From: Chitinophagaceae bacterium | GTDB lineage: Bacteria > Bacteroidota > Bacteroidia > Chitinophagales > Chitinophagaceae | Direction of reading: 5' to 3' | NCBI GenBank assembly: GCA_016699815.1 | Contig: CP065012.1 | Span: forward strand, 1,668,981-1,732,980 | Length of the DNA: 64,000 nt | Shown: positions 27,836 through 41,379 of the stretch, one piece after another | Numbering within the stretch: position 1 is the stretch's first letter | Layout: each line of letters opens with the position of its first letter | The notes under the pieces: model-generated | Told to the model about the DNA's origin: nothing | The model's input: only the letters and a program-made list of their open reading frames with translations | The model's database searches: none | Position numbers and translations under genes: made by a program

Positions 27836-28711
27836 TTAATTACTAAACCTTATGCCAATGGTATAAGGCCGCATATCCAGGCTGTGTTCATACATTGATT
27901 TTGGGCTGTACGAACCATAAAACTTAACCGGGCCTAGGCCCAATTCGCCAATATAGCTAAGTTTAAAACGCTCCATATCATAATCTCCTTTGTTGCGCTT
28001 TTTTCCACGTTCATCACTTTTTTGTTTGTTGCGCTGGCTGTACAAATAGCCTGCGCTTACGCCAAACGAAACACTTACGCCTTTGTTGATACTGTATTTA
28101 TTGCTGGCAAAATTTATCATTACTGGAATGGTAAGGTAATCTGCCGCAAGCTTGTTTTTGCTAAACGAAATTGAATCCCTGAAGATAAAAGGCGCATTGG
28201 TTTGCATACCGCCGCTGTAAGGTATAATGCCATCTTCACGGTAACTGATGGCAGATTTATAACGGTAATTATTAAGCTCCAGGCCAAAACCGTATTTCAA
28301 ATTCATATTCTTTTTTACCAAATGCAGGGTTTGCATAAAAAACCAAATATTTATATTGATGCTTTTGCCTGTACGCAATTTAAAATCGGGTGCGCCAAGT
28401 TTAGGGTTACCGGGCCTGCTTACCAAAAAAATCCCGGTATTGCTGTAATCTGTTTTATCGGTAAAATTTGAAAAACCAAAATCAATTACACCCCAGTTTG
28501 TGGTAGTGCGGTTATACGATGGGTATGATGGGCTCCTTCTTCCCAGCGTAATATTTACACTGTCGTTATCAAAATTTTTCCCTCTTTTAATAATTAATAT
28601 ATTACCCACTCTTATGGTGTCCCGTTTTACTGATGCGCTGCTGTCTGTTTGTGCCGATGCAGTAAAGAAAAAAAAGGCAAATAGGGTAGAAAATAAAAGT
28701 TTACGGTTCAT
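27836..28711 (-). CDS. Outer-membrane beta-barrel protein (Bacteroidota porin-like family)
   Basis: Sec signal MNRKLLFSTLFAFFFFTASA; alternating strands (LKYGFGLELNNY, VSVSFGVSAGYL, LSYIGELGLG); C-terminal YTIGIRF beta-signal. Confidence 0.8.
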   Translation of the reverse strand: MNRKLLFSTLFAFFFFTASAQTDSSASVKRDTIRVGNILIIKRGKNFDNDSVNITLGRRSPSYPSYNRTTTNWGVIDFGFSNFTDKTDYSNTGIFLVSRPGNPKLGAPDFKLRTGKSININIWFFMQTLHLVKKNMNLKYGFGLELNNYRYKSAISYREDGIIPYSGGMQTNAPFIFRDSISFSKNKLAADYLTIPVMINFASNKYSINKGVSVSFGVSAGYLYSQRNKQKSDERGKKRNKGDYDMERFKLSYIGELGLGPVKFYGSYSPKSMYEHSLDMRPYTIGIRFSN

Positions 28712-28745: not shown

Positions 28746-29894
28746 TTAATTAGCGGCTATTTCAAAATTGGCAATTTTAAAAGATTTGCCGGTTTTAATG
28801 TTGGTTCTGCGCTCAACATTGCGCTTTAGTTTACGAAAGAAAACGCCTACTTTACTGCTCTTTACTTCATTTTCTTCCATCATTAATATTTTATCATTGT
28901 TGTTTTCTTCGGGTATTTCTTTAAAGATAGCCGCCTGGGCAAATTGTTCTTTTAAAGGGGTAATATTTTCATCAATAATATTTTTTGCGGCATTGCTGTT
29001 TACAATTGTGCCTTCATTTTTACCGGGTTGTATATTGGGTTCAACAGGCTTATTAAATGCAATTAACGCAGGTTCATTATTATTTTGGCTGCTTGGCGTA
29101 ATTTTTTGTTGTTGAATAAAATCCGGATGTTTTATTTTTCCCTGCTTTGTATTATTGGCAATAACCCTGTTGTTTACCGAAGTTGAAATTTTATTGTTAC
29201 TCACATTGAAACTGCTTTGTTCTATTACAGGTTCTGGCTTTGTACTGCTGTTATTATCGCCGGTAATTGCAGTATTTTCCTTTTTGTAAATTACCTGTGT
29301 ATTACTTTGCTTCGCTTGCGGTTTTGTATTATTGTTTTTTGAGCCTGAGTTGTTGTTATTTTGTACAAGCTCATTTTGTAGTTGTTTGTTAAATAGCCGG
29401 CCAGAATTTTTGATTTTTATACCCGCAAACAAACCTATGCCCAGCAATATGGCTGCTGCAGCCCAGCGTAAATATTTAAAGGAATATACCTTTGCCGCTT
29501 TGTGCCGGTATAAAACCGGTTTGTTATTAAATACATATTCATCGCCTGCCGCTAATTTTGTTTTTTTCAATAAAGCAAAGCTTGCAGCAATTTCTTTATC
29601 AAAACCAAGTAGCTTTGTTATTTCCTGGTTTAAATCGTCGCCTGCTTCGTTATCCAAATACAAGAGTAATTTTTCTTCCAGCGGCGAAATGTAGTCTTCT
29701 GCATTTACCAGTGTTGATTTATCAAAATGAAATTTTGCTGCTGGTAATTGCAGTTGTAAAATTTGAGAAAACTCTTCTTTCAAATCGGCGTTTTCTTCAA
29801 CAAATATTGCTACGGCTGTTTTTTCTGCATCCGAAAGTTCATTATCGGCATACAGCAAAAAAAAGCTTTCGTAATTATTGCGGTTAATTTCCAT
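28746..29894 (-). CDS. Membrane-anchored anti-sigma factor with duplicated anti-sigma-like domain and long disordered periplasmic linker
   Basis: N-terminal FLLYADNELS and LLLYLDNEAG repeats, a single TM (WAAAAILLGIGLFAGI), an Asn/Ser/Gln/Lys-rich linker; lies 4 nt downstream of an ECF sigma. Confidence 0.72.
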   Translation of the reverse strand: MEINRNNYESFFLLYADNELSDAEKTAVAIFVEENADLKEEFSQILQLQLPAAKFHFDKSTLVNAEDYISPLEEKLLLYLDNEAGDDLNQEITKLLGFDKEIAASFALLKKTKLAAGDEYVFNNKPVLYRHKAAKVYSFKYLRWAAAAILLGIGLFAGIKIKNSGRLFNKQLQNELVQNNNNSGSKNNNTKPQAKQSNTQVIYKKENTAITGDNNSSTKPEPVIEQSSFNVSNNKISTSVNNRVIANNTKQGKIKHPDFIQQQKITPSSQNNNEPALIAFNKPVEPNIQPGKNEGTIVNSNAAKNIIDENITPLKEQFAQAAIFKEIPEENNNDKILMMEENEVKSSKVGVFFRKLKRNVERRTNIKTGKSFKIANFEIAAN

Positions 29895-29898
29895 TTGG

Positions 29899-30381
29899 TT
29901 AAATAATGTTTTCTGTTTTTACAATATAGCTCCTCAGTTGCAGCCTTGCCCGGTGCAGGTACACTTTTACCTGGCTTTCATTTAGGTTCATTATCTCCCC
30001 AATTTCTGCATAATTGTATCCTTCATAATCTTTAAGCATTACCAGGCTCCTTTGCAACTCCGTAAGTTTGTTTAAAGCATGTTGTAATGCATCTTTTATA
30101 TGCTGCTGGCTGCTTGTACCCAGCGATTGTTCATTAAAGCTTTCTTTATGGCTTATCCTTTTCACTTTTCTAATATGGTCAATCATCTGGTTATAAGCAA
30201 TCGTAAATAAATAACTTTTGCTTTTATTCGTAATTACCTGGTGCCTGGTTACCCAAAGTTTTTCAAATGCCGTTTGAACAATATCTCTTGCATCTTCTTC
30301 ATGTTGCAGGTTTTTAACGATAAACCGGTACAGGTTATCTGCATATTGGTTTACACATTCGTTATATTCCCTTTCTGTCAT
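29899..30381 (-). CDS. ECF RNA polymerase sigma factor
   Basis: 160 aa; region 2 DIVQTAFEKLW...YLFTIAYNQMIDHIRK and region 4 LKDYEGYNYAEIGEIMNLNESQVKVYLHRAR. Confidence 0.93.
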   Translation of the reverse strand: MTEREYNECVNQYADNLYRFIVKNLQHEEDARDIVQTAFEKLWVTRHQVITNKSKSYLFTIAYNQMIDHIRKVKRISHKESFNEQSLGTSSQQHIKDALQHALNKLTELQRSLVMLKDYEGYNYAEIGEIMNLNESQVKVYLHRARLQLRSYIVKTENII

Positions 30382-30431
30382 AAAATAATTGGCCGGTAAA
30401 AATAATCCAGGTTCTACGTATTTATAGTTAT

Positions 30432-30456
30432 ACGATTGGTAAACCTTAAAAGTTAC
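30432..30456 (-). promoter_or_regulatory. Candidate ECF-type (autoregulatory) promoter
   Basis: Minus strand GTAAC-N17-CGT(ATA), matching the AAC/CGT pattern of ECF promoters, 50 nt before the sigma ATG. Confidence 0.45.
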
Positions 30457-30644
30457 AACTTAAAAATACCTTTTGTAATAAAATGCAATGGTGGATCGGC
30501 ATCGGGCAGGCATTTACTGCTGCAGTTTTGAACAGGTGTTTTTTCCACAGGAATAGCCTGTGGGCCGCTTTTTGATGATTGGTACCAAAAAAAGATAACG
30601 GCAAAAAAGAAGAGCAGAAACAATATTTTGCTGTTTTTACCCAT
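30453..30644 (-). CDS. Small single-TM protein (63 aa)
   Basis: MGKNSKILFLLFFFAVIFFWYQ...CSSKC...KGIFKL; basic N-terminus then a hydrophobic helix. Start placed at ATG 30644. Confidence 0.5.
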   Translation of the reverse strand: MGKNSKILFLLFFFAVIFFWYQSSKSGPQAIPVEKTPVQNCSSKCLPDADPPLHFITKGIFKL

Positions 30645-30780
30645 TGGGTTGTTAGTTGGCTTTGTAGCTATAACGAATATAAAGGTAAAAAGGTTACAGC
30701 CTTTTTCTGAAATGTTAAATAAAACGCAAATATGATGATTCAGAAAAGTGAAACTCAAAATTCAATAAGCTAATGTTCCT

Positions 30781-30788
30781 TAATTTTG
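30781..30788 (+). promoter_or_regulatory. -7 promoter element (TAATTTTG) upstream of kbl
   Basis: Exact TAnnTTTG. It overlaps the ORF-track TTG start, favouring the ATG at 30804. Confidence 0.55.
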
Positions 30789-30803
30789 GAAAAACCAACC
30801 GGT

Positions 30804-31991
30804 ATGAACCAAAAATTTGTTGAAAGATTGGCCACGGAAATTGATGAAATAAAATCTTCGGGTTTATTTAAAACCGAGCGCATTATTGCCAGCGAGCAGG
30901 GTGCGGAAATTATGGTAAACGGAAAAACTGTTTTAAATTTTTGTGCCAATAATTATTTGGGCCTTTCGGCTCATCCCAAAGTAATAGAAGCCGCAAAAAA
31001 ATATATTGATTACCGGGGATATGGTTTGAGTAGCGTAAGGTTTATTTGCGGCACGCAGGATATACATAAAGAGCTGGAACAAAAAATTTCATCTTTTTTA
31101 GGTACTGAAGATAGCATACTTTATGCAGCGGCTTTTGATGCCAATGGCGGCGTTTTTGAACCTTTGTTTAATGAGCAAGATGCCATTATAAGCGATGCAC
31201 TCAACCATGCATCCATAATAGATGGCGTAAGATTGTGCAAGGCACAGCGCTACCGCTATGAACATAATAATATGGCCGACCTTGAAGCAAAGTTAAAAGA
31301 GAGCAGCAGCCTGCGCAGCAGGATTATTGTAACCGATGGCTCCTTTAGCATGGATGGCACCATTGCACAATTGGATAAAATTTGCGACCTGGCAGATAAG
31401 TATGATGCCATTGTAATGATTGATGAATGCCACTCCTCCGGTTTTTTGGGAAAAACAGGAAGAGGTACGCATGAGTACCATGGCGTAATGAACCGTATTG
31501 ATATTATTACCGGCACATTGGGCAAGGCTCTTGGTGGCGCAAGCGGTGGCTTTACATCGGGCCGTAAAGAAATTATTGATATACTGCGGCAGCGCAGCAG
31601 GCCTTATTTATTTTCCAATACGGTGGCGCCAAGTATTGTGGGCGCTTCCATTGCGGTTTTAAATATGCTCAGCAGCACTACCGAGCTTAGAGACAAGCTG
31701 GAAGGCAACACAAAATATTTTCGAAGCAAAATGACCGCTGCCGGTTTTGATATTAAACCTGGCGACCATCCCATTGTGCCCATTATGCTTTACGATGCAG
31801 TGCTTGCACAAAATTTTGCAGCTAAACTTTTGGAAGAAGGGATTTATGTAATTGGTTTCTTTTTTCCGGTGGTGGCAAAAGGGCAGGCACGCATAAGAGT
31901 GCAGCTTAGCGCCGCACACAATCAGCAGCACCTGGATAAAGCCATTGCAGCTTTTACCAAAGTGGGCAAAGAGTTGGGCGTGTTACAATAA
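30804..31991 (+). CDS. kbl: Glycine C-acetyltransferase (2-amino-3-ketobutyrate CoA ligase)
   Basis: NFCANNYLGLS, SVRFICGTQ, DALNHASIIDG, PLP lysine TGTLGKALGG, RQRSRPYLFS, RIRVQLSAAH. Confidence 0.95.
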   Translation: MNQKFVERLATEIDEIKSSGLFKTERIIASEQGAEIMVNGKTVLNFCANNYLGLSAHPKVIEAAKKYIDYRGYGLSSVRFICGTQDIHKELEQKISSFLGTEDSILYAAAFDANGGVFEPLFNEQDAIISDALNHASIIDGVRLCKAQRYRYEHNNMADLEAKLKESSSLRSRIIVTDGSFSMDGTIAQLDKICDLADKYDAIVMIDECHSSGFLGKTGRGTHEYHGVMNRIDIITGTLGKALGGASGGFTSGRKEIIDILRQRSRPYLFSNTVAPSIVGASIAVLNMLSSTTELRDKLEGNTKYFRSKMTAAGFDIKPGDHPIVPIMLYDAVLAQNFAAKLLEEGIYVIGFFFPVVAKGQARIRVQLSAAHNQQHLDKAIAAFTKVGKELGVLQ

Positions 31992-32007
31992 TTTCAATAA
32001 ATTTTTT

Positions 32008-33390
32008 TTAGACCATTTGCAAAAGCGATTCTATGGATGGGGTATTAATATTGATATCGGCAAACTCCCTCAATACTTCATCCCTGGTGCAAAAAGAAAC
32101 GCCGAGGCCGCTTTTTATGATCATACATAAATCGTTGCGGCTGTCGCCCACGGCAACAATATTTTTTAAATCTACATGGTATTTTTCTGCAACCGAAAGC
32201 ATGGCATTGGTTTTACAAAAATTGTGGTTGCAAATACTTTTTTCGTTGCGAAAGAAAAAAGATGGCAGGTGCATTTCGCCATTGCAAATGCCATTGCTCA
32301 TTTGCAGTTCATTGGCCAATGAAAAATCGGCGCCAATTTTTAATTTTATGTGTTCGGTTATTAAAGTATAACTATCGCTAATGATGCCCACAATAAACCC
32401 CCGCTGCTTAAGCTCTTTTACTACCTGCTCAATATTGTTTACCAGCGCCATACTGTCGGCAATATCTATCAGTTCTTTATAAGATTTGCCCTGGAGCAGT
32501 TTGGCAATGGACTTGGTAAGGGCAATGCCATCGTTTTCAAATTCTTTTCTTAACTGCAACAGCTCTTTATCAAAGCCAAAATGTTCGGCGGCTTTGTGTA
32601 TAAACCTGCCCTGCAAAAGGGTGTCATCCATATCTAAAATGAGCATTTTTTGCAGGTGTTGTATGCTTGTTTTTACGGAGTAGCTCAGTTGCTCGGTAAT
32701 AAGGCCAAAGTCGCTTAAATCATCAAGGTTTAAGGAGCGCTTATAGTCTATGGCTTTTTTTAAAATGGCGGCGCTTACCTCTTTGCTCATTTTGCCAATT
32801 TGGTTCAAAGGGCGGCTCCGGTTTTCGAGGTGGCCTATATTTACCTGTTTTATCCTTGCACCTTTGCTGTACAAATCAATAAGTATGGAAACATCTACGC
32901 CATAATCGTTGGGTATGAGCAGGTCTTTTAAAATAGATTTTTTGCCGGCAATCATTCCGCTTAAGGGCTGGTCAAAGCCGGTAAGCTCAGGAAAAAAAAT
33001 ACTCAATAAAGGTTTGGCAACAAGCTCCGTTACCCTGCCGGCATTACGGGTAAAACTCGATTTTACAAAATCACATTCATCGTTAATGATGGGTGCAATT
33101 AATAGTTCCATCATGTTTTTGGGATAGGGATGTATATCGCCGTCAATAAACAGCAGTATTTCATTTTTGGCCAGCAGTATGCCTTCCCTCATAGATGCGC
33201 CCTTGCCCAGCCTGCTGCTGGCAAATACTTTGGCGCCGGCTTTTTTGGCAAGCACAACTGTATCGTCCACCGATTTATCATCTATTACCAATACTTCGGT
33301 AACCTTATCGCATAAAAAGGCACACTGTACTACAGCAGCAATGGTTTCCTGCTCATTTAATGTGGGGATTATTACTGATACCATAATCAT
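32008..33390 (-). CDS. Fusion of GpgS-like glucosyl-3-phosphoglycerate synthase and SerB-type HAD phosphatase
   Basis: N-terminal GT-A: IIPTLNE, IDDKS, GKGASM, IDGD, GRVTELVAKPLL, QPLSG, YGVDVSILID, NRSRPL. C-terminal HAD: LDMDDT, IISDS, K, GDSRND. Confidence 0.8.
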   Translation of the reverse strand: MIMVSVIIPTLNEQETIAAVVQCAFLCDKVTEVLVIDDKSVDDTVVLAKKAGAKVFASSRLGKGASMREGILLAKNEILLFIDGDIHPYPKNMMELLIAPIINDECDFVKSSFTRNAGRVTELVAKPLLSIFFPELTGFDQPLSGMIAGKKSILKDLLIPNDYGVDVSILIDLYSKGARIKQVNIGHLENRSRPLNQIGKMSKEVSAAILKKAIDYKRSLNLDDLSDFGLITEQLSYSVKTSIQHLQKMLILDMDDTLLQGRFIHKAAEHFGFDKELLQLRKEFENDGIALTKSIAKLLQGKSYKELIDIADSMALVNNIEQVVKELKQRGFIVGIISDSYTLITEHIKLKIGADFSLANELQMSNGICNGEMHLPSFFFRNEKSICNHNFCKTNAMLSVAEKYHVDLKNIVAVGDSRNDLCMIIKSGLGVSFCTRDEVLREFADININTPSIESLLQMV

Positions 33391-33561
33391 TAAAATTTTT
33401 CACTACAAAAAAGTAGCCGGTTAAACAATGGTTCAAAACAAAAAAAGGGTATTTCAAAAAAAATTAAGTAAAAGCAGGTAATGGCAGGCTATCTAAGATA
33501 CAAAATTTATGGGAAATGGATTTTTATAATTGCAGAAAAAAAATTTTGCTATTTAAAAAAT

Positions 33562-33582
33562 TGTTTCGACAAGGTCGAAACA
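33562..33582. promoter_or_regulatory. Perfect 9-bp inverted repeat in a divergent intergenic region
   Basis: TGTTTCGAC-aag-GTCGAAACA flanked by A6 and T runs. Confidence 0.4.
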
Positions 33583-33800
33583 TTTTTTCTTTTAAATAGT
33601 ACTGCTATGAAAAATTTAATCAGGCCCTCATTGATTCCCATATACTTCTTAGGGTATTATGAAAAAGCAATAAGGGAGGCTATTAGTATTACTTAGCGCT
33701 GCTGCAGTTCTATGCAGGCTGTAAAGCGTATAGTTGGTGGAAATGCCAGGGTTCTTCCACAAAAGGTGACAAGAATTTTATAACTTTAAAATTGAATAAA

Positions 33801-33959
33801 ATGAAAATTTCAAAACCCCAAAATTTTAATTGCTGGTCAATTGCATTATTTGCACTGACTATTATTTTTACTAGCTGTCAAAAACAAGAAATACTAAACG
33901 AACCCAGCCCTAACTTACAAAGCTCAAATATAGCAGGCCGTGAGGGAGAATACCGCTGA
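33801..33959 (+). CDS. Small lipoprotein or truncated lipoprotein remnant (52 aa, not in ORF track)
   Basis: MKISKPQNFNCWSIALFALTIIFTS-CQKQEILNEPSPNLQSSNIAGREGEYR*; A-rich upstream context and a typical Bacteroidota lipobox. Confidence 0.55.
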   Translation: MKISKPQNFNCWSIALFALTIIFTSCQKQEILNEPSPNLQSSNIAGREGEYR

Positions 33960-34025
33960 CTTGTCAAACACAACCACACACAGGTTTTTTGTTTTATTTG
34001 GGCAAAGAAAATTAACCAAAAAATT

Positions 34026-34039
34026 CCGGGCTATCCCGG
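34026..34039 (-). terminator. Terminator of tig
   Basis: Minus strand CCGGG-atag-CCCGG followed by AATTTTTT, just after the tig stop. Confidence 0.55.
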
Positions 34040-34062
34040 CATTTTCTTTTGAAAATTTTTTT

Positions 34063-35430
34063 TTAGTGTTGGTGGTTGTGCTGTATTGCTGTTAATTCTT
34101 CGGCGCTTACTATTTTTTCTACCGGGCTTATTTTAGATTCCAGCAATTCAAAAACTTTGTTGCTGGTAATTCTGCGGTAACTGGCCTCTACCTGTTTTTC
34201 ATCTTTCATCATACGGTCAATATAGCTGTCGAGCCAGCCCATATCGTTGTTCATATTCATTTGGCCAAAATAGCGCATCACTTCTTCCCTCATACTTTCT
34301 TTAATTTCTTCGGGTGTTGCTTCCAGTTTGTTATCCTGCGTAAGTTTATCGCTTATTAAGGTCCATTTTAACTGGTTGCTAAAGTTGGGCCATTCTGTTT
34401 CGGCCTGCTCTGCGGTTTTGGGCTGCTCGTTATTGGTTTGCATCCAGCGCTTTAAAAAATTTGCAGGGAACTCAATTGTAGTTTCCTCTACCAGGTAATG
34501 ATAAAGCTGGTCGTAAAATTGTGTGCGGCCCTGGTTGCTCCAGTATTGCTGTATTTCTTCTTTAATGGTATTGCGAAAATCTGCTTCGGTTTTTAAAATT
34601 TTGCCCGGGTATATTTCGTTAAAAAACGCTTCGTTCAACTCCCGTTTTTCTACAAGGCCAATTTTTACAATGCTTGCTTTAAAATATTTTTTTGCAGCAA
34701 GGGTATCGTTTTTTTCAAAACCTAAATCCTGCAGCATCATGTGCAGCTTATCGGTTTCAAAGGCTTTGCTGAGTTGAAAAACAATGCTATCCTCTTTCTT
34801 TTTGCCCATCAGGCTTTTTTGCAATGCTGCAGAAAAATATTTGAGCAGCACGGAATTTTCTTTGCTTATTCCGCCTTCTATTACATCGCCTGCTTCGGTA
34901 CATTCGGCAAATAAAATATTGATTACATTTTCCGGATTATCAATAATTTCAGGCTCGGTCATGTTGCCGCCTTTAATTTGCAGTCGGTTTACTTCTTCAT
35001 CTACCATATCGGCCGTGGCTTCCACTTTGTAATTAGTAAATTTTCCTTTGCTTAAATCGGCAATTTCAAAAGCCGGTTTTAACCCTATTTCAAAATCAAA
35101 TGAATAATCGGCCGGGTTGTTCATATCAAAAGCATCAATACTATTGACCAATGGCAAGGGCTGTGCAAAAATATCGGGCTGCTCAGCAGTGAGCCATTTG
35201 TGTAATTCGGCTTCGGCGCTGCGGATTACTTCTTCGGTAAAAATTCCCGTACCATACATTTTTTTAATCATGCCGGCCGGCACCATGCCTTTTCTAAAGC
35301 CTGGTATATTGGCCGTTTTGCCATATTGCTTTAATTTTTTTTCAAAAGAAGGCAAATAATCATCCTTACTTATTTTAACGGTAAGTTTGTCGTTGAGCAA
35401 ACCCAAATTTTCTCTTACTACTGTTGCCAT
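34063..35430 (-). CDS. tig: Trigger factor
   Basis: Ribosome-binding IPGFRKGMVP, FEIGLKPAF, LKWTLISDKL; adjacent to tRNA-Leu. Confidence 0.93.
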   Translation of the reverse strand: MATVVRENLGLLNDKLTVKISKDDYLPSFEKKLKQYGKTANIPGFRKGMVPAGMIKKMYGTGIFTEEVIRSAEAELHKWLTAEQPDIFAQPLPLVNSIDAFDMNNPADYSFDFEIGLKPAFEIADLSKGKFTNYKVEATADMVDEEVNRLQIKGGNMTEPEIIDNPENVINILFAECTEAGDVIEGGISKENSVLLKYFSAALQKSLMGKKKEDSIVFQLSKAFETDKLHMMLQDLGFEKNDTLAAKKYFKASIVKIGLVEKRELNEAFFNEIYPGKILKTEADFRNTIKEEIQQYWSNQGRTQFYDQLYHYLVEETTIEFPANFLKRWMQTNNEQPKTAEQAETEWPNFSNQLKWTLISDKLTQDNKLEATPEEIKESMREEVMRYFGQMNMNNDMGWLDSYIDRMMKDEKQVEASYRRITSNKVFELLESKISPVEKIVSAEELTAIQHNHQH

Positions 35431-35467
35431 AACTTGTAAAATTCTAAAATTTTAAAAAAAATAAAAA

Positions 35468-35529
35468 AAGTTGACCCGTTTTTGGTTGATTCTCCGGTTT
35501 CTGTAAATCAACTTTGCAACCTGTCAACT
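35468..35529. repeat. Inverted degenerate 8-mer arrays (GTTGA / TCAAC) between tRNA-Leu and tig
   Basis: aagttgac..ggttgatt versus aatcaact-ttgcaacc-tgtcaact. Confidence 0.45.
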
Positions 35530-35539
35530 CTTAAAAATG

Positions 35540-35621
35540 TGCGGATGATAGGGGTCGAACCTACATGGATTGCTCCGCCAGATCCTAAGTCTGGTGCGTC
35601 TGCCAATTTCGCCACATCCGC
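35540..35621 (-). tRNA. tRNA-Leu (anticodon TAG)
   Basis: GCGGATG acceptor stem, D-loop TGG, anticodon arm CCAGA-CTTAGGA-TCTGG, long variable arm, GTTCGA T-loop; CCA not encoded. Confidence 0.95.
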
Positions 35622-35631
35622 AAATGGGCTG

Positions 35632-35639
35632 CAAAATTA
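35632..35639 (-). promoter_or_regulatory. -7 promoter element (TAATTTTG) of tRNA-Leu/tig
   Basis: Exact TAnnTTTG 10 nt before the tRNA 5' end. Confidence 0.65.
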
Positions 35640-35762
35640 GGGGTTTCGGCCAATAATTCGCTAATAAAATGAGTTAATTTGATGAAAAATATGGCTTCAC
35701 TGTATTTTAATATTGAATTTGATTTTGAGCAAGTATATTTTTAAAGTAAATTCGTAAGAATC

Positions 35763-37994
35763 ATGGAAGTTACCGCCAAAATAGCGCCTTATACCCTCAA
35801 CGAAGAAGAGGAAAAAAAAGAAATTCTCCGGGAGTACAAGGCATTGCTACGGGTTTTAAAAGCCAAGCTAAAACCCGGCGATAAAGTATTGCTGCGCCGG
35901 GCTTTTGAAATGGCTGCCGAAGCCCATAAAACCATGAGGCGTAAAAGCGGCGAGCCTTACATTCTTCATCCCTTGGCCGTGGCAAAAATTTGTGTGGAAG
36001 AAATTGGCCTGGGCATTCGCAGTACCATTTGCGCTTTATTGCACGATACCGTAGAAGATACCGATATTACCCTGGAAGATGTAAAAAGAGAATTTGGAAT
36101 TGAAATTGCAAAAATTGTAGATGGCCTCACCAAAATTTCTACTGTTATGGATGCCAACAGCAGCCAGCAGGCAGAAAATTTTAAAAAAATACTTTTAACG
36201 CTTACCGATGACCCAAGGGTAATTTTAATAAAACTTGCCGACAGGTTGCACAACATGCGTACTCTGGATAGCATGAAAACCGAAAAGCAATTAAAAGTTT
36301 CGTCCGAAACCATTTACGTATACGCTCCGCTTGCTCATCGCATGGGTTTGTACAATATTAAAACCGAGTTAGAAGATTTGGCCATGAAATATCTTGAGCC
36401 GGACAGCTTTCGGTTTATTGCCAAAAAATTACAAGATACCAAAAGAGAACGCACCCGCTACATCAACGATTTTATTCGCCCTTTAAAAGCCAAGCTGGAA
36501 AAAACAGGTTTAAATTTTGAAATCTACGGCAGGCCCAAAAGCATACACTCCATTTGGAACAAAATAAAAAAGAAAGGCGTTGCCTTTGAAGAAGTGTATG
36601 ATTTATTTGCCATACGCATTATTGTAGATAGCACACCAGAAAAAGAAAAAGAAGAGTGCTGGAAAGTGTACAGCGTTATTACCGACGCCTACAACCCAAG
36701 CCCCGAAAGGCTTAGGGATTGGCTCAGCAACCCCAAGAGCAATGGTTACGAAGCCTTACATACAACCGTAATGGGCCCGCAGGGAAAATGGGTAGAAGTG
36801 CAAATACGCACCAAACGCATGAACGAAATTGCCGAAAAAGGCCTGGCAGCACACTGGAAATACAAAGAAGGCACATCAGACGAAAACCGCTTCGACAAAT
36901 GGTTTGGACAAATAAGGGAAGCGCTATCCAATGAAGAAGACAGCTCCTTCGATTTTTTGCAGGATTTTAAAAGCTCCTTTCTTACCGAAGAAATTTATGT
37001 TTATACACCCAAAGGCGATGTAAAAATGTTGCCCGTTGGTGCATCTGCACTGGACTTTGCCTTTAGCGTACACACTGCCGTGGGCAGCCGTTGTATTGGT
37101 GCAAAGGTAAACCATAAACTGGTGCCTATAAGTTATAAACTACGCAGTGGCGACCAGATAGAAATTATTACCAGCGCTAAGCAAAAGCCCAACTCGGAAT
37201 GGCTGAACCTGGTGGTAACCAGCAAAGCCAAAACAAAAATTAAAGATTCTTTAAAAGAAGAAAAAAGAAAAATTGCCGAAGATGGCAAGGCTTTTTTACA
37301 GCGTAAGCTGGAAGCTATTGGCGCAGCAATGAACGCACAAAATTTTGATGAGCTTTGCATGTTTTATAAAGTAAACAGTTCGCTGGATTTAATGTATGAT
37401 ATTGCCATAAAAAAAATTGATTTAAAAGAGCTCAAAAGTTTTACCATACATGGCGATAAACTGGTACCTCCAAAACCGGTTGCGCCTAAAGAAGAAAAGC
37501 CGGAGTACGAGCCCAATAAAATTAACCCCAAAAAAGATACCGAACTTATTATTTTTGGCGAAAGCAGCGACCGCATAGTTTATTCCCTGGCCAATTGCTG
37601 CAAGCCCATTCCCGGCGATGATGTGTTTGGCTTTATAAGCACCGGCGAAGGCCTGAAAATACACCGTACCAATTGCCCCAATGCAGCAAGGCTTATGGCC
37701 AATTACGGCCACAGGGTGGTTAAAACCAAGTGGGCAAAAAATAAAGAAATATCCTTCCTCACTGGTTTAAAAATTGTAGGGCTTGATGATGTAGGCGTAA
37801 TTCATAAAATTACCAACCTCATAAGTGGCGAAATGAAATTTAATATTTCTGCCATGACTATTGAAGCCAACGACGGTATTTTTGAAGGCAACCTGAAAAT
37901 TTATGTGCATGATAAAGAAGAGCTGGACCTGCTGGTGGAAAGGATACATGCACTACCCGGCATAGAAAGTGTGGATCGCTACGATGCAGAGTAA
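35763..37994 (+). CDS. relA: Bifunctional (p)ppGpp synthetase/hydrolase (long RSH)
   Basis: RKSGEPYILHP, intact HDTVED hydrolase motif, KLADRLHNMRT, GRPKS, EVQIRT, TGS, zinc-like CCKPIPGD and ACT domains. Confidence 0.95.
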   Translation: MEVTAKIAPYTLNEEEEKKEILREYKALLRVLKAKLKPGDKVLLRRAFEMAAEAHKTMRRKSGEPYILHPLAVAKICVEEIGLGIRSTICALLHDTVEDTDITLEDVKREFGIEIAKIVDGLTKISTVMDANSSQQAENFKKILLTLTDDPRVILIKLADRLHNMRTLDSMKTEKQLKVSSETIYVYAPLAHRMGLYNIKTELEDLAMKYLEPDSFRFIAKKLQDTKRERTRYINDFIRPLKAKLEKTGLNFEIYGRPKSIHSIWNKIKKKGVAFEEVYDLFAIRIIVDSTPEKEKEECWKVYSVITDAYNPSPERLRDWLSNPKSNGYEALHTTVMGPQGKWVEVQIRTKRMNEIAEKGLAAHWKYKEGTSDENRFDKWFGQIREALSNEEDSSFDFLQDFKSSFLTEEIYVYTPKGDVKMLPVGASALDFAFSVHTAVGSRCIGAKVNHKLVPISYKLRSGDQIEIITSAKQKPNSEWLNLVVTSKAKTKIKDSLKEEKRKIAEDGKAFLQRKLEAIGAAMNAQNFDELCMFYKVNSSLDLMYDIAIKKIDLKELKSFTIHGDKLVPPKPVAPKEEKPEYEPNKINPKKDTELIIFGESSDRIVYSLANCCKPIPGDDVFGFISTGEGLKIHRTNCPNAARLMANYGHRVVKTKWAKNKEISFLTGLKIVGLDDVGVIHKITNLISGEMKFNISAMTIEANDGIFEGNLKIYVHDKEELDLLVERIHALPGIESVDRYDAE

Positions 37995-38280: not shown

Positions 38281-41200
38281 TTACCTTATTATCAGTTTTT
38301 CCGTAAGTGTTTGTTTGCCGTTGGCAATGCTTAAAGTATAAACGCCATTGGCAATACCGTGTATATTTAAGCGGCTTGCGCTGCCTGTTGACAGGTTTTG
38401 GCTTTTCCAGGTTTTCACTAGTGCTCCTTTTGCATCAAACAGGTTAATATTTGCCTTGCTATTCATACCGCTTACAAAAACGGCAATTACGTCGCTTGCA
38501 GGATTGGGGCTAATGCTTATAAATATATTGCCCTTACCTTTAATTTTTGCCTGGCGTACATCCGATAATTTTTCATTGTTGTCAATATCTTTTTGCCTTA
38601 GGCGATAATAATAGATAACATCTGGCTCAACATAATTATCGGTGTAAGTATAGTGGGAAATAATGTTGCTGTTCATTTTTCCATTGATCCATGAAATAGG
38701 TTCAAATTGGTTTCCGTCTATGCTTCTTTCTACAAAAAAACCTTTGTTATTGTTTTCAATTGAAGTGCTCCAGTTAAGAACAATATTTTTATTATTGGAC
38801 AACGCATCAAAGTTGAGTATGGCAACAGGCACTACGGAGGTTTGATAAACCAGCAAAAATTGAGAAAAGCCGCCGGTAAAATCCCCGCTAAAAGAAGCAT
38901 ATCCTTTTGTTGCCCGCTGATCGTCTATTACTGCATTTACCACTTCAGCATCGGCACTGTTGATGAGGCCGCCAAGGTTTATGCCGTTTTTAACTTTCAT
39001 TAATTTAAGGTTTGCAAAATTTGCGCCCCATATGGCAAGTTCGGCGGTAGTATAATATAGCGTTACATTATAGCTTGCGGTTGTATTGGCAATGGCAGGC
39101 GAAATATTTACTACTTTTTCGCTGCGGAGGTAAGTAGCTGCTGTGCTGCTAAGTGAAATATTTGTGTTGCCGGCCTGTGTAATAGTTGCAGTAAGGCAAC
39201 CAGGCGATACAGATGGGTTGCTCAATTTAGCAATTACCTGGCCATCGTTGCTGCTGTAAAAATTACTGCTGCCCGATGTAGATAAAATATTTTCTGTAGC
39301 TGCATGGTTCAACTGGCTTTCTACTGTTACATTTTTTCCGGTAACAACAACATCATCTATTGCAAATGGCGGTTGGTTGGCAACGCTATTATCCGAAATC
39401 CATCGGAACATTAACCTTAAATTACTGGTTCCAATTGTTCCGGCAGGTAAATTGATATTTAAAGTAGTTGAGCTGGTTATTCCCTGCAGGTAAACATCGT
39501 TATTCAATACTGTAAGTACAGAATAATTAGTGCCGTTGAGTGTATAATAAACCAATCCAAAATCATAAAAAGTGCCGCTGTCTATTTCTCCATTACTCAC
39601 CAGCTTAAGAGATACGGAAATATCTTTTAGCCCGGCTGCATTCAGTAAAGGGGTAACTGCCCTTGCATCAGTACCTGTTGCAGTACTGGAATAGGCCATT
39701 GCAGCCGTGCCATTTGTTACTGCAGTGGAATTGCCATTGGAAATATGCAAAGTGTTGCCACTAAATCCATAAGTGCCTGCACCGGTATTATTGCCTACCC
39801 ATTTATTGGTAGTGGATGTACCAGCAGCATTGCTGGTAACCCATCCTGCTGGTACCTGGTTGCTGCCGGTAGTGATGCCAAAATTTTCTGAAAGCAATGT
39901 TACGGTTGGCATTGTATTGTTAATGCTATAATTAAAATCATCATCGGTAATGGTTATCGTATATTGGTTTGCAGAGCCGCAGGCTATTGATTGCTGCACA
40001 CCTGTGCCGGAAATATTAAAAGCTAACTGTATGGTTTCGGCGCTTTCTATAATAGCATCGTCATAAATCCTTAGCGTAAATACTTTATCGGTTGCATCTC
40101 CATTGGTATAGGTTACCGATGAAGGCGTAATAGTATAATCAGTAATTTCGGTTGCCGATCCTGTTTTTGAAAGGCTAAGTGTTGCGTTTCCATTTGCTGT
40201 AGATTCTACACCTACTGTAATAGGATATTCTTTGTATCTCGGGCAAGCGCCACTTGCTGTTTCGGAAACGGTTGTTTGCCCCGGCTTAAAGAAAATGCGG
40301 TTAAGCATTGGGGAAACCCCCGTAGTGGAAGAAGGCAATTCTTTTCTGCGTGGGCTGTTGAGCATTACTACCTGGCAGCGCTCCGATTGATTTAAGGTAA
40401 AAGTATTGAGGCAAATATCATTACTGTAATCCATGTAGTTTTCAAACATTTTTGGTACAGATGGAGTACAGCCATTTGCCGTTCCGGGAGCAGGGCAGCC
40501 GCTGGTTAATGCGTTTTGCGGAGGTGTATCGGTACAATAATCATTGCCGCAATTTGCGTCCCCTGTAATATGGCGAAGGCCAAAAAAATGGCCCAGTTCA
40601 TGGGTGAGTGTGCGGCCATACTGGTATGGTGATGCCGTGCCGGGATTAGATAAACTGCCTACGCTTCCACTCATTACTACTACGCCTGCTGTTTGATCGG
40701 TTTCACTATTGCCAAGGCCTGGCAATGTACTCATTGCCGGAAATGTTGCATAACCCAATAATCCGCTGCCCGAAAAATCGGCCAGCCAAATATTTACATA
40801 CCGGTAAGGGTCCCAATAGCTTTGTGGTTTTACTACATTATCAAAATGCGTCATTACTGCATTCATACTGCTAAGCCCAGATGGGTTCTGCCAGCCGGAC
40901 TGGCTCCTCCAGTTTATTCTTACAATACCGGGCTCGCAAAGTAAATTGCCCATTGGGTCCACTTTTGCCGCAACAAAACGAACGCCTAAGTCGGTAGCGC
41001 TTCCATAACCTGAACCGGAAAGATTGGCAAAATCTGCATTTAACTGCTGTATTTGTGCAGTTACTATTGCTTGTGTAAGATTTGCACCTGTGCCAATTGT
41101 GCTTTCGGTATTACCATCATAAATTACATGAAATATAATGGGTACAGAAAAAATGGTTGTAGGTGGGCCAAAATTATTGAGTTGTTTAAATTCGTTGATG

Positions 41201-41379
41201 AGCCTTTGCATTTCAGCTTCATAGGCCGCATCATTAAATCCACGGACACGGTTTTTTTCCATTTCGGCGCTAAAGCCACATTTATCTGCTGCGGCTACAA
41301 ATGGCGATTTTAAAACCTGTTGGGAAAATACATTAGATACAATAAAACCAAATAGAAAAAGGGTGTAAATTTTCTTCAT
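38281..41379 (-). CDS. T9SS-secreted M43 (pappalysin/ulilysin-like) zinc metalloprotease with Calx-beta-like and further beta domains
   Basis: Signal peptide, pro-region Cys (DKCGF), HELGHFFGLRH, Met-turn ENYMDYS; Calx-beta-like YDDAIIESAET; type A CTD ISPNPASD...GVYTLSI...TEKLIIR. Confidence 0.88.
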   Translation of the reverse strand: MKKIYTLFLFGFIVSNVFSQQVLKSPFVAAADKCGFSAEMEKNRVRGFNDAAYEAEMQRLINEFKQLNNFGPPTTIFSVPIIFHVIYDGNTESTIGTGANLTQAIVTAQIQQLNADFANLSGSGYGSATDLGVRFVAAKVDPMGNLLCEPGIVRINWRSQSGWQNPSGLSSMNAVMTHFDNVVKPQSYWDPYRYVNIWLADFSGSGLLGYATFPAMSTLPGLGNSETDQTAGVVVMSGSVGSLSNPGTASPYQYGRTLTHELGHFFGLRHITGDANCGNDYCTDTPPQNALTSGCPAPGTANGCTPSVPKMFENYMDYSNDICLNTFTLNQSERCQVVMLNSPRRKELPSSTTGVSPMLNRIFFKPGQTTVSETASGACPRYKEYPITVGVESTANGNATLSLSKTGSATEITDYTITPSSVTYTNGDATDKVFTLRIYDDAIIESAETIQLAFNISGTGVQQSIACGSANQYTITITDDDFNYSINNTMPTVTLLSENFGITTGSNQVPAGWVTSNAAGTSTTNKWVGNNTGAGTYGFSGNTLHISNGNSTAVTNGTAAMAYSSTATGTDARAVTPLLNAAGLKDISVSLKLVSNGEIDSGTFYDFGLVYYTLNGTNYSVLTVLNNDVYLQGITSSTTLNINLPAGTIGTSNLRLMFRWISDNSVANQPPFAIDDVVVTGKNVTVESQLNHAATENILSTSGSSNFYSSNDGQVIAKLSNPSVSPGCLTATITQAGNTNISLSSTAATYLRSEKVVNISPAIANTTASYNVTLYYTTAELAIWGANFANLKLMKVKNGINLGGLINSADAEVVNAVIDDQRATKGYASFSGDFTGGFSQFLLVYQTSVVPVAILNFDALSNNKNIVLNWSTSIENNNKGFFVERSIDGNQFEPISWINGKMNSNIISHYTYTDNYVEPDVIYYYRLRQKDIDNNEKLSDVRQAKIKGKGNIFISISPNPASDVIAVFVSGMNSKANINLFDAKGALVKTWKSQNLSTGSASRLNIHGIANGVYTLSIANGKQTLTEKLIIR

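Follow-up and report, generated by a model that had tools for sequence, protein, structure and literature searches.

We describe a gene whose product probably carries out the two-step synthesis of glucosylglycerate (or mannosylglycerate) on a single polypeptide, as judged from its sequence and that of its relatives. The gene lies at 32008-33390 on the reverse strand of the window, that is, the whole analysed stretch of 64,000 nucleotides from the Chitinophagaceae bacterium contig CP065012.1, and it joins a short GpgS-like glycosyltransferase to a SerB-like phosphatase of the HAD-IB subfamily. The fusion itself is real and widespread. In the proposed mechanism, the GpgS-like half would move a hexose from a nucleoside diphosphate (NDP) sugar to the 2-OH of 3-phospho-D-glycerate, yielding hexosyl-3-phosphoglycerate, and the HAD-IB domain would irreversibly remove the 3-phosphate, leaving glucosylglycerate (or mannosylglycerate) as a free organic solute without nitrogen; the whole would be a cytoplasmic two-step enzyme encoded by one gene. 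From the evidence presented below we infer which donor and acceptor the enzyme uses, which step comes first, what it makes, and a role in osmotic or nitrogen stress.

Two domains on one polypeptide

The gene is one uninterrupted open reading frame (ORF) of 460 codons plus stop, and its full-length homologues, thousands of sequences, measure 455-475 amino acids. Relatives begin at Met3, and the true start may be at 33384 instead of 33390. An N-terminal GT-A glycosyltransferase domain of the short GpgS/MpgS-like (GT81-like) form (residues 1-215, 32746..33390) was delimited with NCBIfam, Pfam, PDB and Foldseek searches, and a C-terminal HAD-IB phosphatase domain with a C1 cap and a SerB-like fold (residues 246-460, 32008..32655) with NCBIfam, HMMER and Foldseek; the linker between them (residues 216-245, 32656..32745) was predicted by AlphaFold2 to be helical, at low confidence. 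All features of the gene named here and below lie, like the gene, on the reverse strand. The motifs quoted in a first-pass annotation of the same DNA, together with the two-domain architecture that it read from them, were all found, and their coordinates were verified by translation. The AlphaFold2 model, built on 48 homologues, reached a mean predicted local distance difference test score (pLDDT) of 86, with each domain near 90 and residues 229-245 of the linker below 50.

The glycosyltransferase half

Residues 5-125 match the Pfam family Glycos_transf_2 (5.8e-18), and over residues 3-224 the top NCBIfam family is glucosyl-3-phosphoglycerate synthase PRK13915 (9e-52), the next glycosyltransferase family following at 2e-21. 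A PDB sequence search returned the M. tuberculosis GpgS (MtGpgS, 3e-29) and the R. xylanophilus MpgS (7e-22). When the AlphaFold2 model was compared by Foldseek, its N-terminal half superposed on GpgS structures with 35-36% identity and a root-mean-square deviation of 1.6-2.0 Å over ~224 columns, the Rubrobacter MpgS coming next with 28% identity.

In the alignment with MtGpgS, the metal/nucleotide-sugar motif DxD is present as DGD (33136..33144; role in PMC2581804), with Asp83 and Asp85 at the positions of Asp134 and Asp136. Lys63 corresponds to MtGpgS Lys114 and is kept, and the segments GKG and YGVD were located by translation at 33199-33207 and 32893-32904, respectively. The six residues of the MtGpgS donor-sugar pocket, L209/M269/Y229/D134/K114/E232, align with L143/M201/Y163/D83/K63/D166; the pocket Glu232 is thus Asp166, an Asp as in MgS. 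Taken together, the residues that mark membership of GpgS (DxD, Lys114, GRVTE, PLSG and the equivalents of Tyr229, Glu232 and Met269) are all represented, Glu232 in the form of Asp. The acceptor motif GRVTE occupies residues 118-122 (33025..33039; role in PMC2581804); in MtGpgS, the backbone nitrogen of Val186 and the side chain of Thr187 hold the carboxylate of 3-phosphoglycerate (3-PGA), much as MgS does with D-glycerate (PMC2581804). The donor-sugar loop QPLSGM (residues 141-146, 32953..32970) retains the Ser of the PLSGE loop (PLSGE/PLGGE in PMC2581804), a residue proposed there to rigidify the loop and exclude mannose. Glucose would most likely be the hexose and mannose would be less likely, given that the domain is closer in identity to GpgS than to MpgS and has retained the PLSG Ser; both signals are weak.

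The kept residues are invariant in 48 close homologues and mostly conserved across 38 fusions of 24-51% identity. Among these distant fusions, Asp83 and Asp85 are found in 36/38 and 34/38, and GRVTE, invariant in the close family, in 31-33/38. Arg115 and Arg119, the counterparts of MtGpgS Arg167 and Arg185, are conserved as well.

The phosphatase half

The Pfam HAD family matches residues 251-423 (3.4e-11), and the top NCBIfam family over residues 238-459 is SerB TIGR00338 (1.5e-32). The HAD-IB subfamily model TIGR01488 is satisfied (67.6 bits against a cut-off of 45), and the score for the SerB equivalog lies under its cut-off (113 against 144.15 bits for TIGR00338). The phosphoserine phosphatase of M. 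jannaschii (MjPSP) was retrieved by the PDB sequence search (2.4e-20; 7e-21 in the HMMER alignment), and Foldseek placed the C-terminal half of the model on it with 25% identity and a template modelling (TM) score of 0.83-0.86. HAD motifs I-IV are intact, as seen from alignment and translation: DMDDT (32620..32634) with the nucleophile Asp253 and the acid/base Asp255, Ser338 (32377-32379), Lys393, and GDSRND (32131..32148) with Asp416 and Asp420. In the model, motifs I and II are separated by a helical cap. This half is predicted with confidence to be a catalytically competent HAD-IB phosphatase.

Its substrate would be a different one from that of SerB. In phosphoserine phosphatase (PSP), Glu20 binds the amino group of phosphoserine, and Glu20 and Arg56 are the phosphoserine-binding residues (PMC6321591). 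In HMMER alignments with MjPSP and the M. avium SerB2, Glu20 aligns with Arg262 (32605..32607) and Arg56 falls inside a 3-residue deletion, so that the protein has neither of the phosphoserine-binding residues of SerB. The Glu20 position is taken by Arg, Ser, Asp or another residue in 38 diverse fusions, and by Glu in none (0/38). Because of this replacement, the deletion of Arg56 and the consistent lack of Glu, it is very unlikely, going by the alignments, that the HAD half is specific for phosphoserine. The SerB scaffold would nevertheless be chemically apt, as glucosyl-3-phosphoglycerate (GPG) can be regarded as phosphoserine carrying an O-glycoside where the amine would be; the loss of the amine-binding Glu and the reshaping of the cap may be explained by a substrate that would bear an O-glycoside, not an amine.

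Alignment with MjPSP also delimits a segment at 32212..32265 (residues 376-393) that comprises the family-specific insert PSFFFRNEKSICNHNFC and has the motif III Lys393 at its end. About 10 residues before this Lys are without counterpart in MjPSP, and they hold Cys387-x-His389-x2-Cys392. Comparison of the 38 distant fusions showed His389 in 25/38, Cys392 in 31/38, and Cys422, which stands beside motif IV (32125-32127), in 26/38. Cys387, His389 and Cys392, directly before the catalytic Lys393, and Cys422 have no equivalent in phosphoserine phosphatases; it may be speculated that the cluster is a metal-binding, redox or structural site. As regards the known GpgPs, the Pfam scan gave no homology to His_Phos_1, only a short match to Hydrolase_3/S6PP in the motif IV region (residues 386-449).

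A group of 50%-identity clusters of ~380 amino acids (P0227, P0230, P0238, P0239, P0241 and P0245) has the same glycosyltransferase and only ~140 C-terminal residues with a weak HAD match, perhaps what remains of a phosphatase domain after truncation or degeneration.

Split and stand-alone relatives

In the 50%-identity library, both halves also occur as separate proteins. In a Sphingobacteriales metagenome-assembled genome (MAG; locus L081), a glycosyltransferase of 227 amino acids and an HAD-IB protein of 226 amino acids are encoded by adjacent genes on one strand, 8 nt apart. In loci L083-85, a stand-alone glycosyltransferase with ~49% identity to the query overlaps by 4 nt the gene of a His_Phos_1 phosphatase, followed by a GT8 glycosyltransferase and a membrane protein. 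The mycobacterial GpgP belongs to the His_Phos_1 superfamily (PMC3240985). The His_Phos_1 partner in L083-85 is therefore a member of the GpgP superfamily, though GpgP is not its closest relative. A metagenome scan was performed with a glycosyltransferase-only alignment of 6 sequences, ORF calling and phmmer; it covered 80 loci, 59 of which were fusions, and a His_Phos_1 gene stood within two genes in 9/16 stand-alone loci having at least one downstream gene, often with GT8 or GT4 too. Another stand-alone clade adjoins GT4, PGM/PMM, a diacylglycerol (DAG)-kinase-like gene and an S6PP-type HAD-IIB phosphatase, and elsewhere the glycosyltransferase clade is fused to a sugar-1-phosphate nucleotidyltransferase or a pyruvyl transferase.

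The glycosyltransferase clade is thus partnered repeatedly with phosphatases of three unrelated folds, which is the signature of a synthase whose phosphorylated product needs dephosphorylation. The same synthase-then-phosphatase logic is common to the synthesis of trehalose, sucrose, glucosylglycerol, mannosylglycerate and glucosylglycerate. The first-pass annotation had held that the phosphatase serves the glycosyltransferase and not serine synthesis, and the replacement of Glu20 by Arg262, the deletion of Arg56, the split adjacent genes and the stand-alone glycosyltransferases with unrelated phosphatases all agree with it.

Stand-alone short GpgS-like glycosyltransferases with a histidine phosphatase and a GT8 were seen in L083:5001-8614, L096:4995-7188 and L108:4992-7342, some of them on human-gut metagenome contigs. 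By analogy, these clusters look like a diglycosyl-glycerate pathway such as that of mannosylglucosylglycerate (MGG). The MGG pathway extends GPG before dephosphorylation (PMC3736172).

Distribution of the fusion

Searches of a 90%-clustered protein database gave thousands of matches, of which the best 120 were all full-length (447-501 amino acids), and a scan with one genome per species confirmed the fusion at at least 574 loci. Among the matches listed were Chitinophagaceae (Ferruginibacter, Niabella, Lacibacter, Sediminibacterium and Hydrotalea), Saprospiraceae, Prolixibacteraceae, Emticicia, Cyclobacteriaceae, Ohtaekwangia, and MAGs of Sphingobacteriales and Flavobacteriales. Carriers available in culture include Lacibacter cauensis CGMCC 1.7271, Sediminibacterium sp. 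C3, S. salmoneum NBRC 103935, Emticicia soli and E. fluvialis. Full-length fusions were found down to ~24-30% identity in the 50%-identity library. One fusion belongs to a Micrarchaeota archaeon, where it follows a mechanosensitive-channel fragment. The query sequence is present in activated-sludge and wastewater metagenomes. Names among the matches conflict ('HAD-IB family phosphatase', 'phosphoserine phosphatase SerB', 'glucosyl-3-phosphoglycerate synthase' and 'glycosyltransferase'); the NCBI name of the query is 'HAD-IB family phosphatase' only.

The gene had been described at first pass as sitting in an accessory-looking slot. This description had to be abandoned: at least 574 species-representative genomes have the fusion, the GC content of the gene (0.40-0.43) is the same as that of its flanks, its relatives have no conserved neighbours, and only the nearest relative has kbl and tig on either side of it. 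An accessory reading is unsupported because the fusion is widespread and its GC content matches the flanks. A horizontally transferred or accessory island was likewise rejected, given the flank-like GC content and the lack of mobile-element genes.

Neighbours of the fusion genes

No conserved neighbourhood naming a pathway was found across 81 genome loci, where the best neighbour cluster reached 17/81; with no neighbour conserved, a self-sufficient single-gene pathway fits. The most recurrent partner is a polytopic membrane protein of ~390 amino acids, coupled to the fusion gene at a downstream distance of 1-11 nt in 11/81 loci. At 5/81 loci, the gene coupled downstream, at a distance of 5 nt or less, is that of a ClC chloride channel with CBS domains, and the two partners together account for 16/81. 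Among ~59 metagenomic fusion loci, ClC or the ~390-residue protein stands near 10. The membrane protein family, aligned from 17 loci (e.g. L032:1751-2929 on the forward strand and L010:9390-10559), gave no Pfam, NCBIfam or PDB match, profile search included. It carries an invariant YESSLSD motif, which we take to resemble the ESxxND motif of cation/proton antiporters. NhaA occurs at 5/81 loci, and Usp genes surround a split glycosyltransferase/HAD version plus a lone HAD, downstream of a two-component system. A distant fusion adjoins TreT, Trehalose_PPase and OtsA-like genes. The recurrent neighbours are suggestive, and weakly so, of a role in ionic or osmotic stress.

In L172:6113-9410, the TreT, trehalose-phosphatase and OtsA-like genes are each broken into several short ORFs, probably by long-read frameshift errors rather than as pseudogenes.

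Evidence against the proposed function and alternative explanations

Several observations weigh against a GpgS-type two-step synthesis. GpgS and SerB are the best-matching families of the two halves, and both halves score below the equivalog cut-offs; for the glycosyltransferase half the values are 176.1 against 262 bits (GpgS model NF010496 / EC 2.4.1.266) and, with the second GpgS model NF040724, 30 against 700 bits. About 45 N-terminal residues of MtGpgS are absent from the query, and Glu212 of the PLSGE loop is replaced by Met. The position of the metal ligand His258 is occupied by Asn190 (32821..32823, within ENRSRPL), which is invariant in the close family. In 24/38 distant fusions and many stand-alone relatives this position holds His, and Asn190 is, to go by these alignments, a local trait of the close clade. 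A 14-residue gap between FTR and NAGRVTE, relative to MtGpgS, takes away the β6-α6 loop, which in MtGpgS has been suggested to make contact with the remaining, phosphate-bearing end of the acceptor 3-PGA (PMC2581804); because this loop is absent, acceptor recognition may differ from that of MtGpgS. Any reading of domain-domain geometry, or of a channel between the active sites, was ruled out by the low-confidence linker and the predicted TM score (pTM) of 0.50; at this pTM the domain orientation is unfixed, and hence the model says nothing on channelling. Stress-related neighbours are found at a minority of loci.

Some of these features would fit a protein that follows the same two-step logic with another phosphorylated acceptor, e.g. 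2-phosphoglycerate, glycerol-3-phosphate or phospholactate, and makes another glycoside. Such an acceptor would agree with the score below the GpgS cut-off, with the loss of the 14-residue acceptor-lid loop, with the altered positions of MtGpgS His258, Arg256 and Asn260, and with the position of the clade outside every characterised GpgS group, no such group coming from Bacteroidota (PMC3736172). We nevertheless consider it unlikely, as GRVTE, which binds the carboxylate in GpgS and MgS, is invariant, the closest characterised enzymes all use glycerate-type acceptors, and a pocket of the SerB type is well matched to a 3-phosphorylated three-carbon acid. Alternatively, dephosphorylation might come first, with the HAD domain making D-glycerate from 3-PGA and the glycosyltransferase glycosylating D-glycerate in one step, like MgS/GgS. 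Gene adjacency does not reveal the order; 3-PGA is isosteric with phosphoserine (OH for NH3+), a substrate that the loss of Glu20 would fit, and the glycosyltransferase is without the putative binding loop for the 3-PGA phosphate. However, the known synthase-phosphatase solute pathways all dephosphorylate last, the MGG route doing so even after GPG has been extended (PMC3736172), Arg115 and Arg119 are conserved, and the insert and deletion in the HAD cap would fit a bulkier substrate, all of which makes a phosphatase-first route a distinctly poor prospect.

It is still less probable that the product is a primer for a glycolipid or polysaccharide, in the way that glucosylglycerate serves mycobacterial methylglucose lipopolysaccharide (MGLP), a precedent described in PMC2581804 and PMC4555173. 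Stand-alone relatives clustered with GT8 or GT4, a DAG-kinase-like gene and PGM/PMM would favour a primer; against this, no adjacent conserved glycosyl-, acyl- or methyltransferase was found at the Bacteroidota fusion loci examined, and their recurrent immediate neighbours are channels or transporters. The primer idea, also put forward at first pass, thus lost ground, since no further glycosyltransferase adjoins the fusion loci and GT8/GT4 genes adjoin only some stand-alone relatives. The least probable explanation, in our judgement, is that the HAD half is the genuine SerB of the cell and the glycosyltransferase half an unrelated or regulatory passenger. The nearest relatives in structure and sequence are indeed phosphoserine phosphatases, and some databases use the name SerB; yet both phosphoserine-binding residues are gone, the score lies under the SerB cut-off with an NCBI name that stops at the HAD-IB family, the HAD gene remains beside the glycosyltransferase gene when the two are split, relatives of the glycosyltransferase swap in unrelated phosphatases, and no ser genes are found nearby in the 81 loci. 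The ~2 Mb of locus sequence retrieved for the comparison contained no canonical SerB.

The two-step synthesis of glucosylglycerate or mannosylglycerate can also be taken further. The phosphatase might be a third, independently evolved glycosyl-phosphoglycerate phosphatase, derived from a PSP scaffold with a Cys/His site and fused to a minimal GT81, and Bacteroidota of freshwater, soil and sludge, along with some DPANN archaea, might contain glucosylglycerate, or an undescribed glycosyl acid, as a major organic solute hitherto overlooked and co-regulated with ion channels. We regard this extended proposal, taken whole, as conceivable but doubtful.

The home locus

Among the loci compared, the window is syntenic only with a Ferruginibacter MAG (L001, 88% identity), which bears out the Bacteroidota origin assumed at first pass; the kbl/tig arrangement is kept only in this closest MAG. 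An operon with kbl was rejected, the two genes being convergent with 16 bp between their stop codons. Upstream, an AT-rich spacer of 672 bp without an Rfam match (33391..34062) separates the gene from tig. It contains a terminator-like hairpin after tig (34026-34039) and, mid-spacer, a second hairpin with a perfect 9-bp stem and T-runs on both sides, which resembles a bidirectional terminator (33562-33582). A riboswitch or non-coding RNA in this gap was rejected, as an Rfam scan of 30000-36500 gave only tRNA-Leu at 35539-35621. Metatranscriptome coverage breaks at ~33.48-33.68 kb, where the 33562-33582 hairpin falls, and an operon with tig was rejected on account of this gap and the terminator-like hairpin after tig. 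Word depth in activated-sludge metatranscriptome assemblies was ~1-5 on the fusion gene and 8-17 on tig, although contig depth is a poor measure of expression and DNA carry-over remains possible. From the coverage break and the hairpin, the fusion gene appears to be transcribed separately from tig, at a low level.

The spacer also holds a 55-codon ORF (33792-33959, forward strand, opposite to the fusion gene) with a lipoprotein-like signal (ALFALTIIFTSC); it may encode a small lipoprotein or be what is left of a gene. Upstream of tig, the tRNA-Leu gene (anticodon TAG, 35539-35621, reverse strand) adjoins a divergent RelA/SpoT-like gene of 743 amino acids (35763-37994, forward strand); together with a gene of 1032 amino acids (38281-41379, forward in the locus orientation), this arrangement is common to the Ferruginibacter MAG. 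On the reverse strand at 28746-30381, a sigma factor of the extracytoplasmic function (ECF) type (160 amino acids) lies directly upstream of an Asn/Ser-rich putative anti-sigma protein of 382 amino acids, and next after the latter comes a beta-barrel-like outer-membrane protein of 291 amino acids (27836-28711); all three were identified by eye.

Comparison with known systems

A full-text literature search, with most subscription journals outside its reach, found no paper on this fusion architecture; within that reach, the earlier remark that no characterised example is known holds. A survey of GpgS from 2013 covered archaea, Aquificales, actinobacteria, cyanobacteria and Planctomycetes and did not include Bacteroidota (PMC3736172). 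If the proposed function is correct, a glucosyl- or mannosylglycerate-type pathway extends to hundreds of dominant Bacteroidota species of sludge, soil, rhizosphere and freshwater, and a common misannotation, with the names SerB, GpgS, glycosyltransferase and HAD-IB phosphatase given to one and the same protein, would be corrected. A stabilising solute free of nitrogen and of interest to biotechnology could then be made with a single protein, and the enzyme would be an example of a phosphoserine phosphatase pocket re-tooled for a three-carbon acid with a sugar in place of the amine.

The nearest characterised relatives of the glycosyltransferase half are the actinobacterial GpgS enzymes (M. 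tuberculosis Rv1208 and M. hassiacum; GT81; PDB 4Y6N and 7P5L), with which it shares the GT-A fold at 35-36% identity, the DxD, the catalytic-site Lys, GRVTE, the PLSG loop and the Tyr/Met/Leu sugar pocket. Unlike them, the query domain is ~100 residues shorter, being without the N-terminal extension, the β6-α6 loop and the C-terminal dimer helices; it has Asn for His258 and a fused phosphatase, and it scores under the equivalog cut-off. The R. xylanophilus MpgS (GT81; PDB 3F1Y), whose acceptor is 3-PGA, has the same fold and family and is more distant than GpgS (28% identity, E 7e-22).

With SerB/PSP (M. jannaschii 1F5S and M. avium SerB2), the phosphatase half has in common the HAD-IB fold, the C1 helical cap and motifs I-IV, and differs in the change of Glu20 to Arg, the deletion of Arg56 and the Cys/His insert of ~10 amino acids before motif III. 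The reaction proposed for it is the same as that of the known GpgPs, namely MpgP-like HAD-IIB enzymes and the histidine phosphatase Rv2419c (PDB 4PZ9), whereas the fused domain belongs to another HAD subfamily (IB, C1 cap); if the proposal is true, it is a third, independently recruited phosphatase type for the GPG step.

A synthase and a phosphatase on one polypeptide with a glycoside solute as product are likewise known from the Dehalococcoides MgsD, the fused GGP (glucosylglycerol phosphate) phosphatase/synthase and TPS-TPP. MgsD has the synthase-N/phosphatase-C order with GT55 (MPGS) and HAD-IIB (MPGP) domains, and its product is mannosylglycerate. The fused GGP phosphatase/synthase is described for Marinobacter in PMC10873239. 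The query has no MPGS-type Pfam match and does not belong to the MgsD type; with its GT2/GT81-like and HAD-IB domains, it is set apart from MgsD by the families of both domains.

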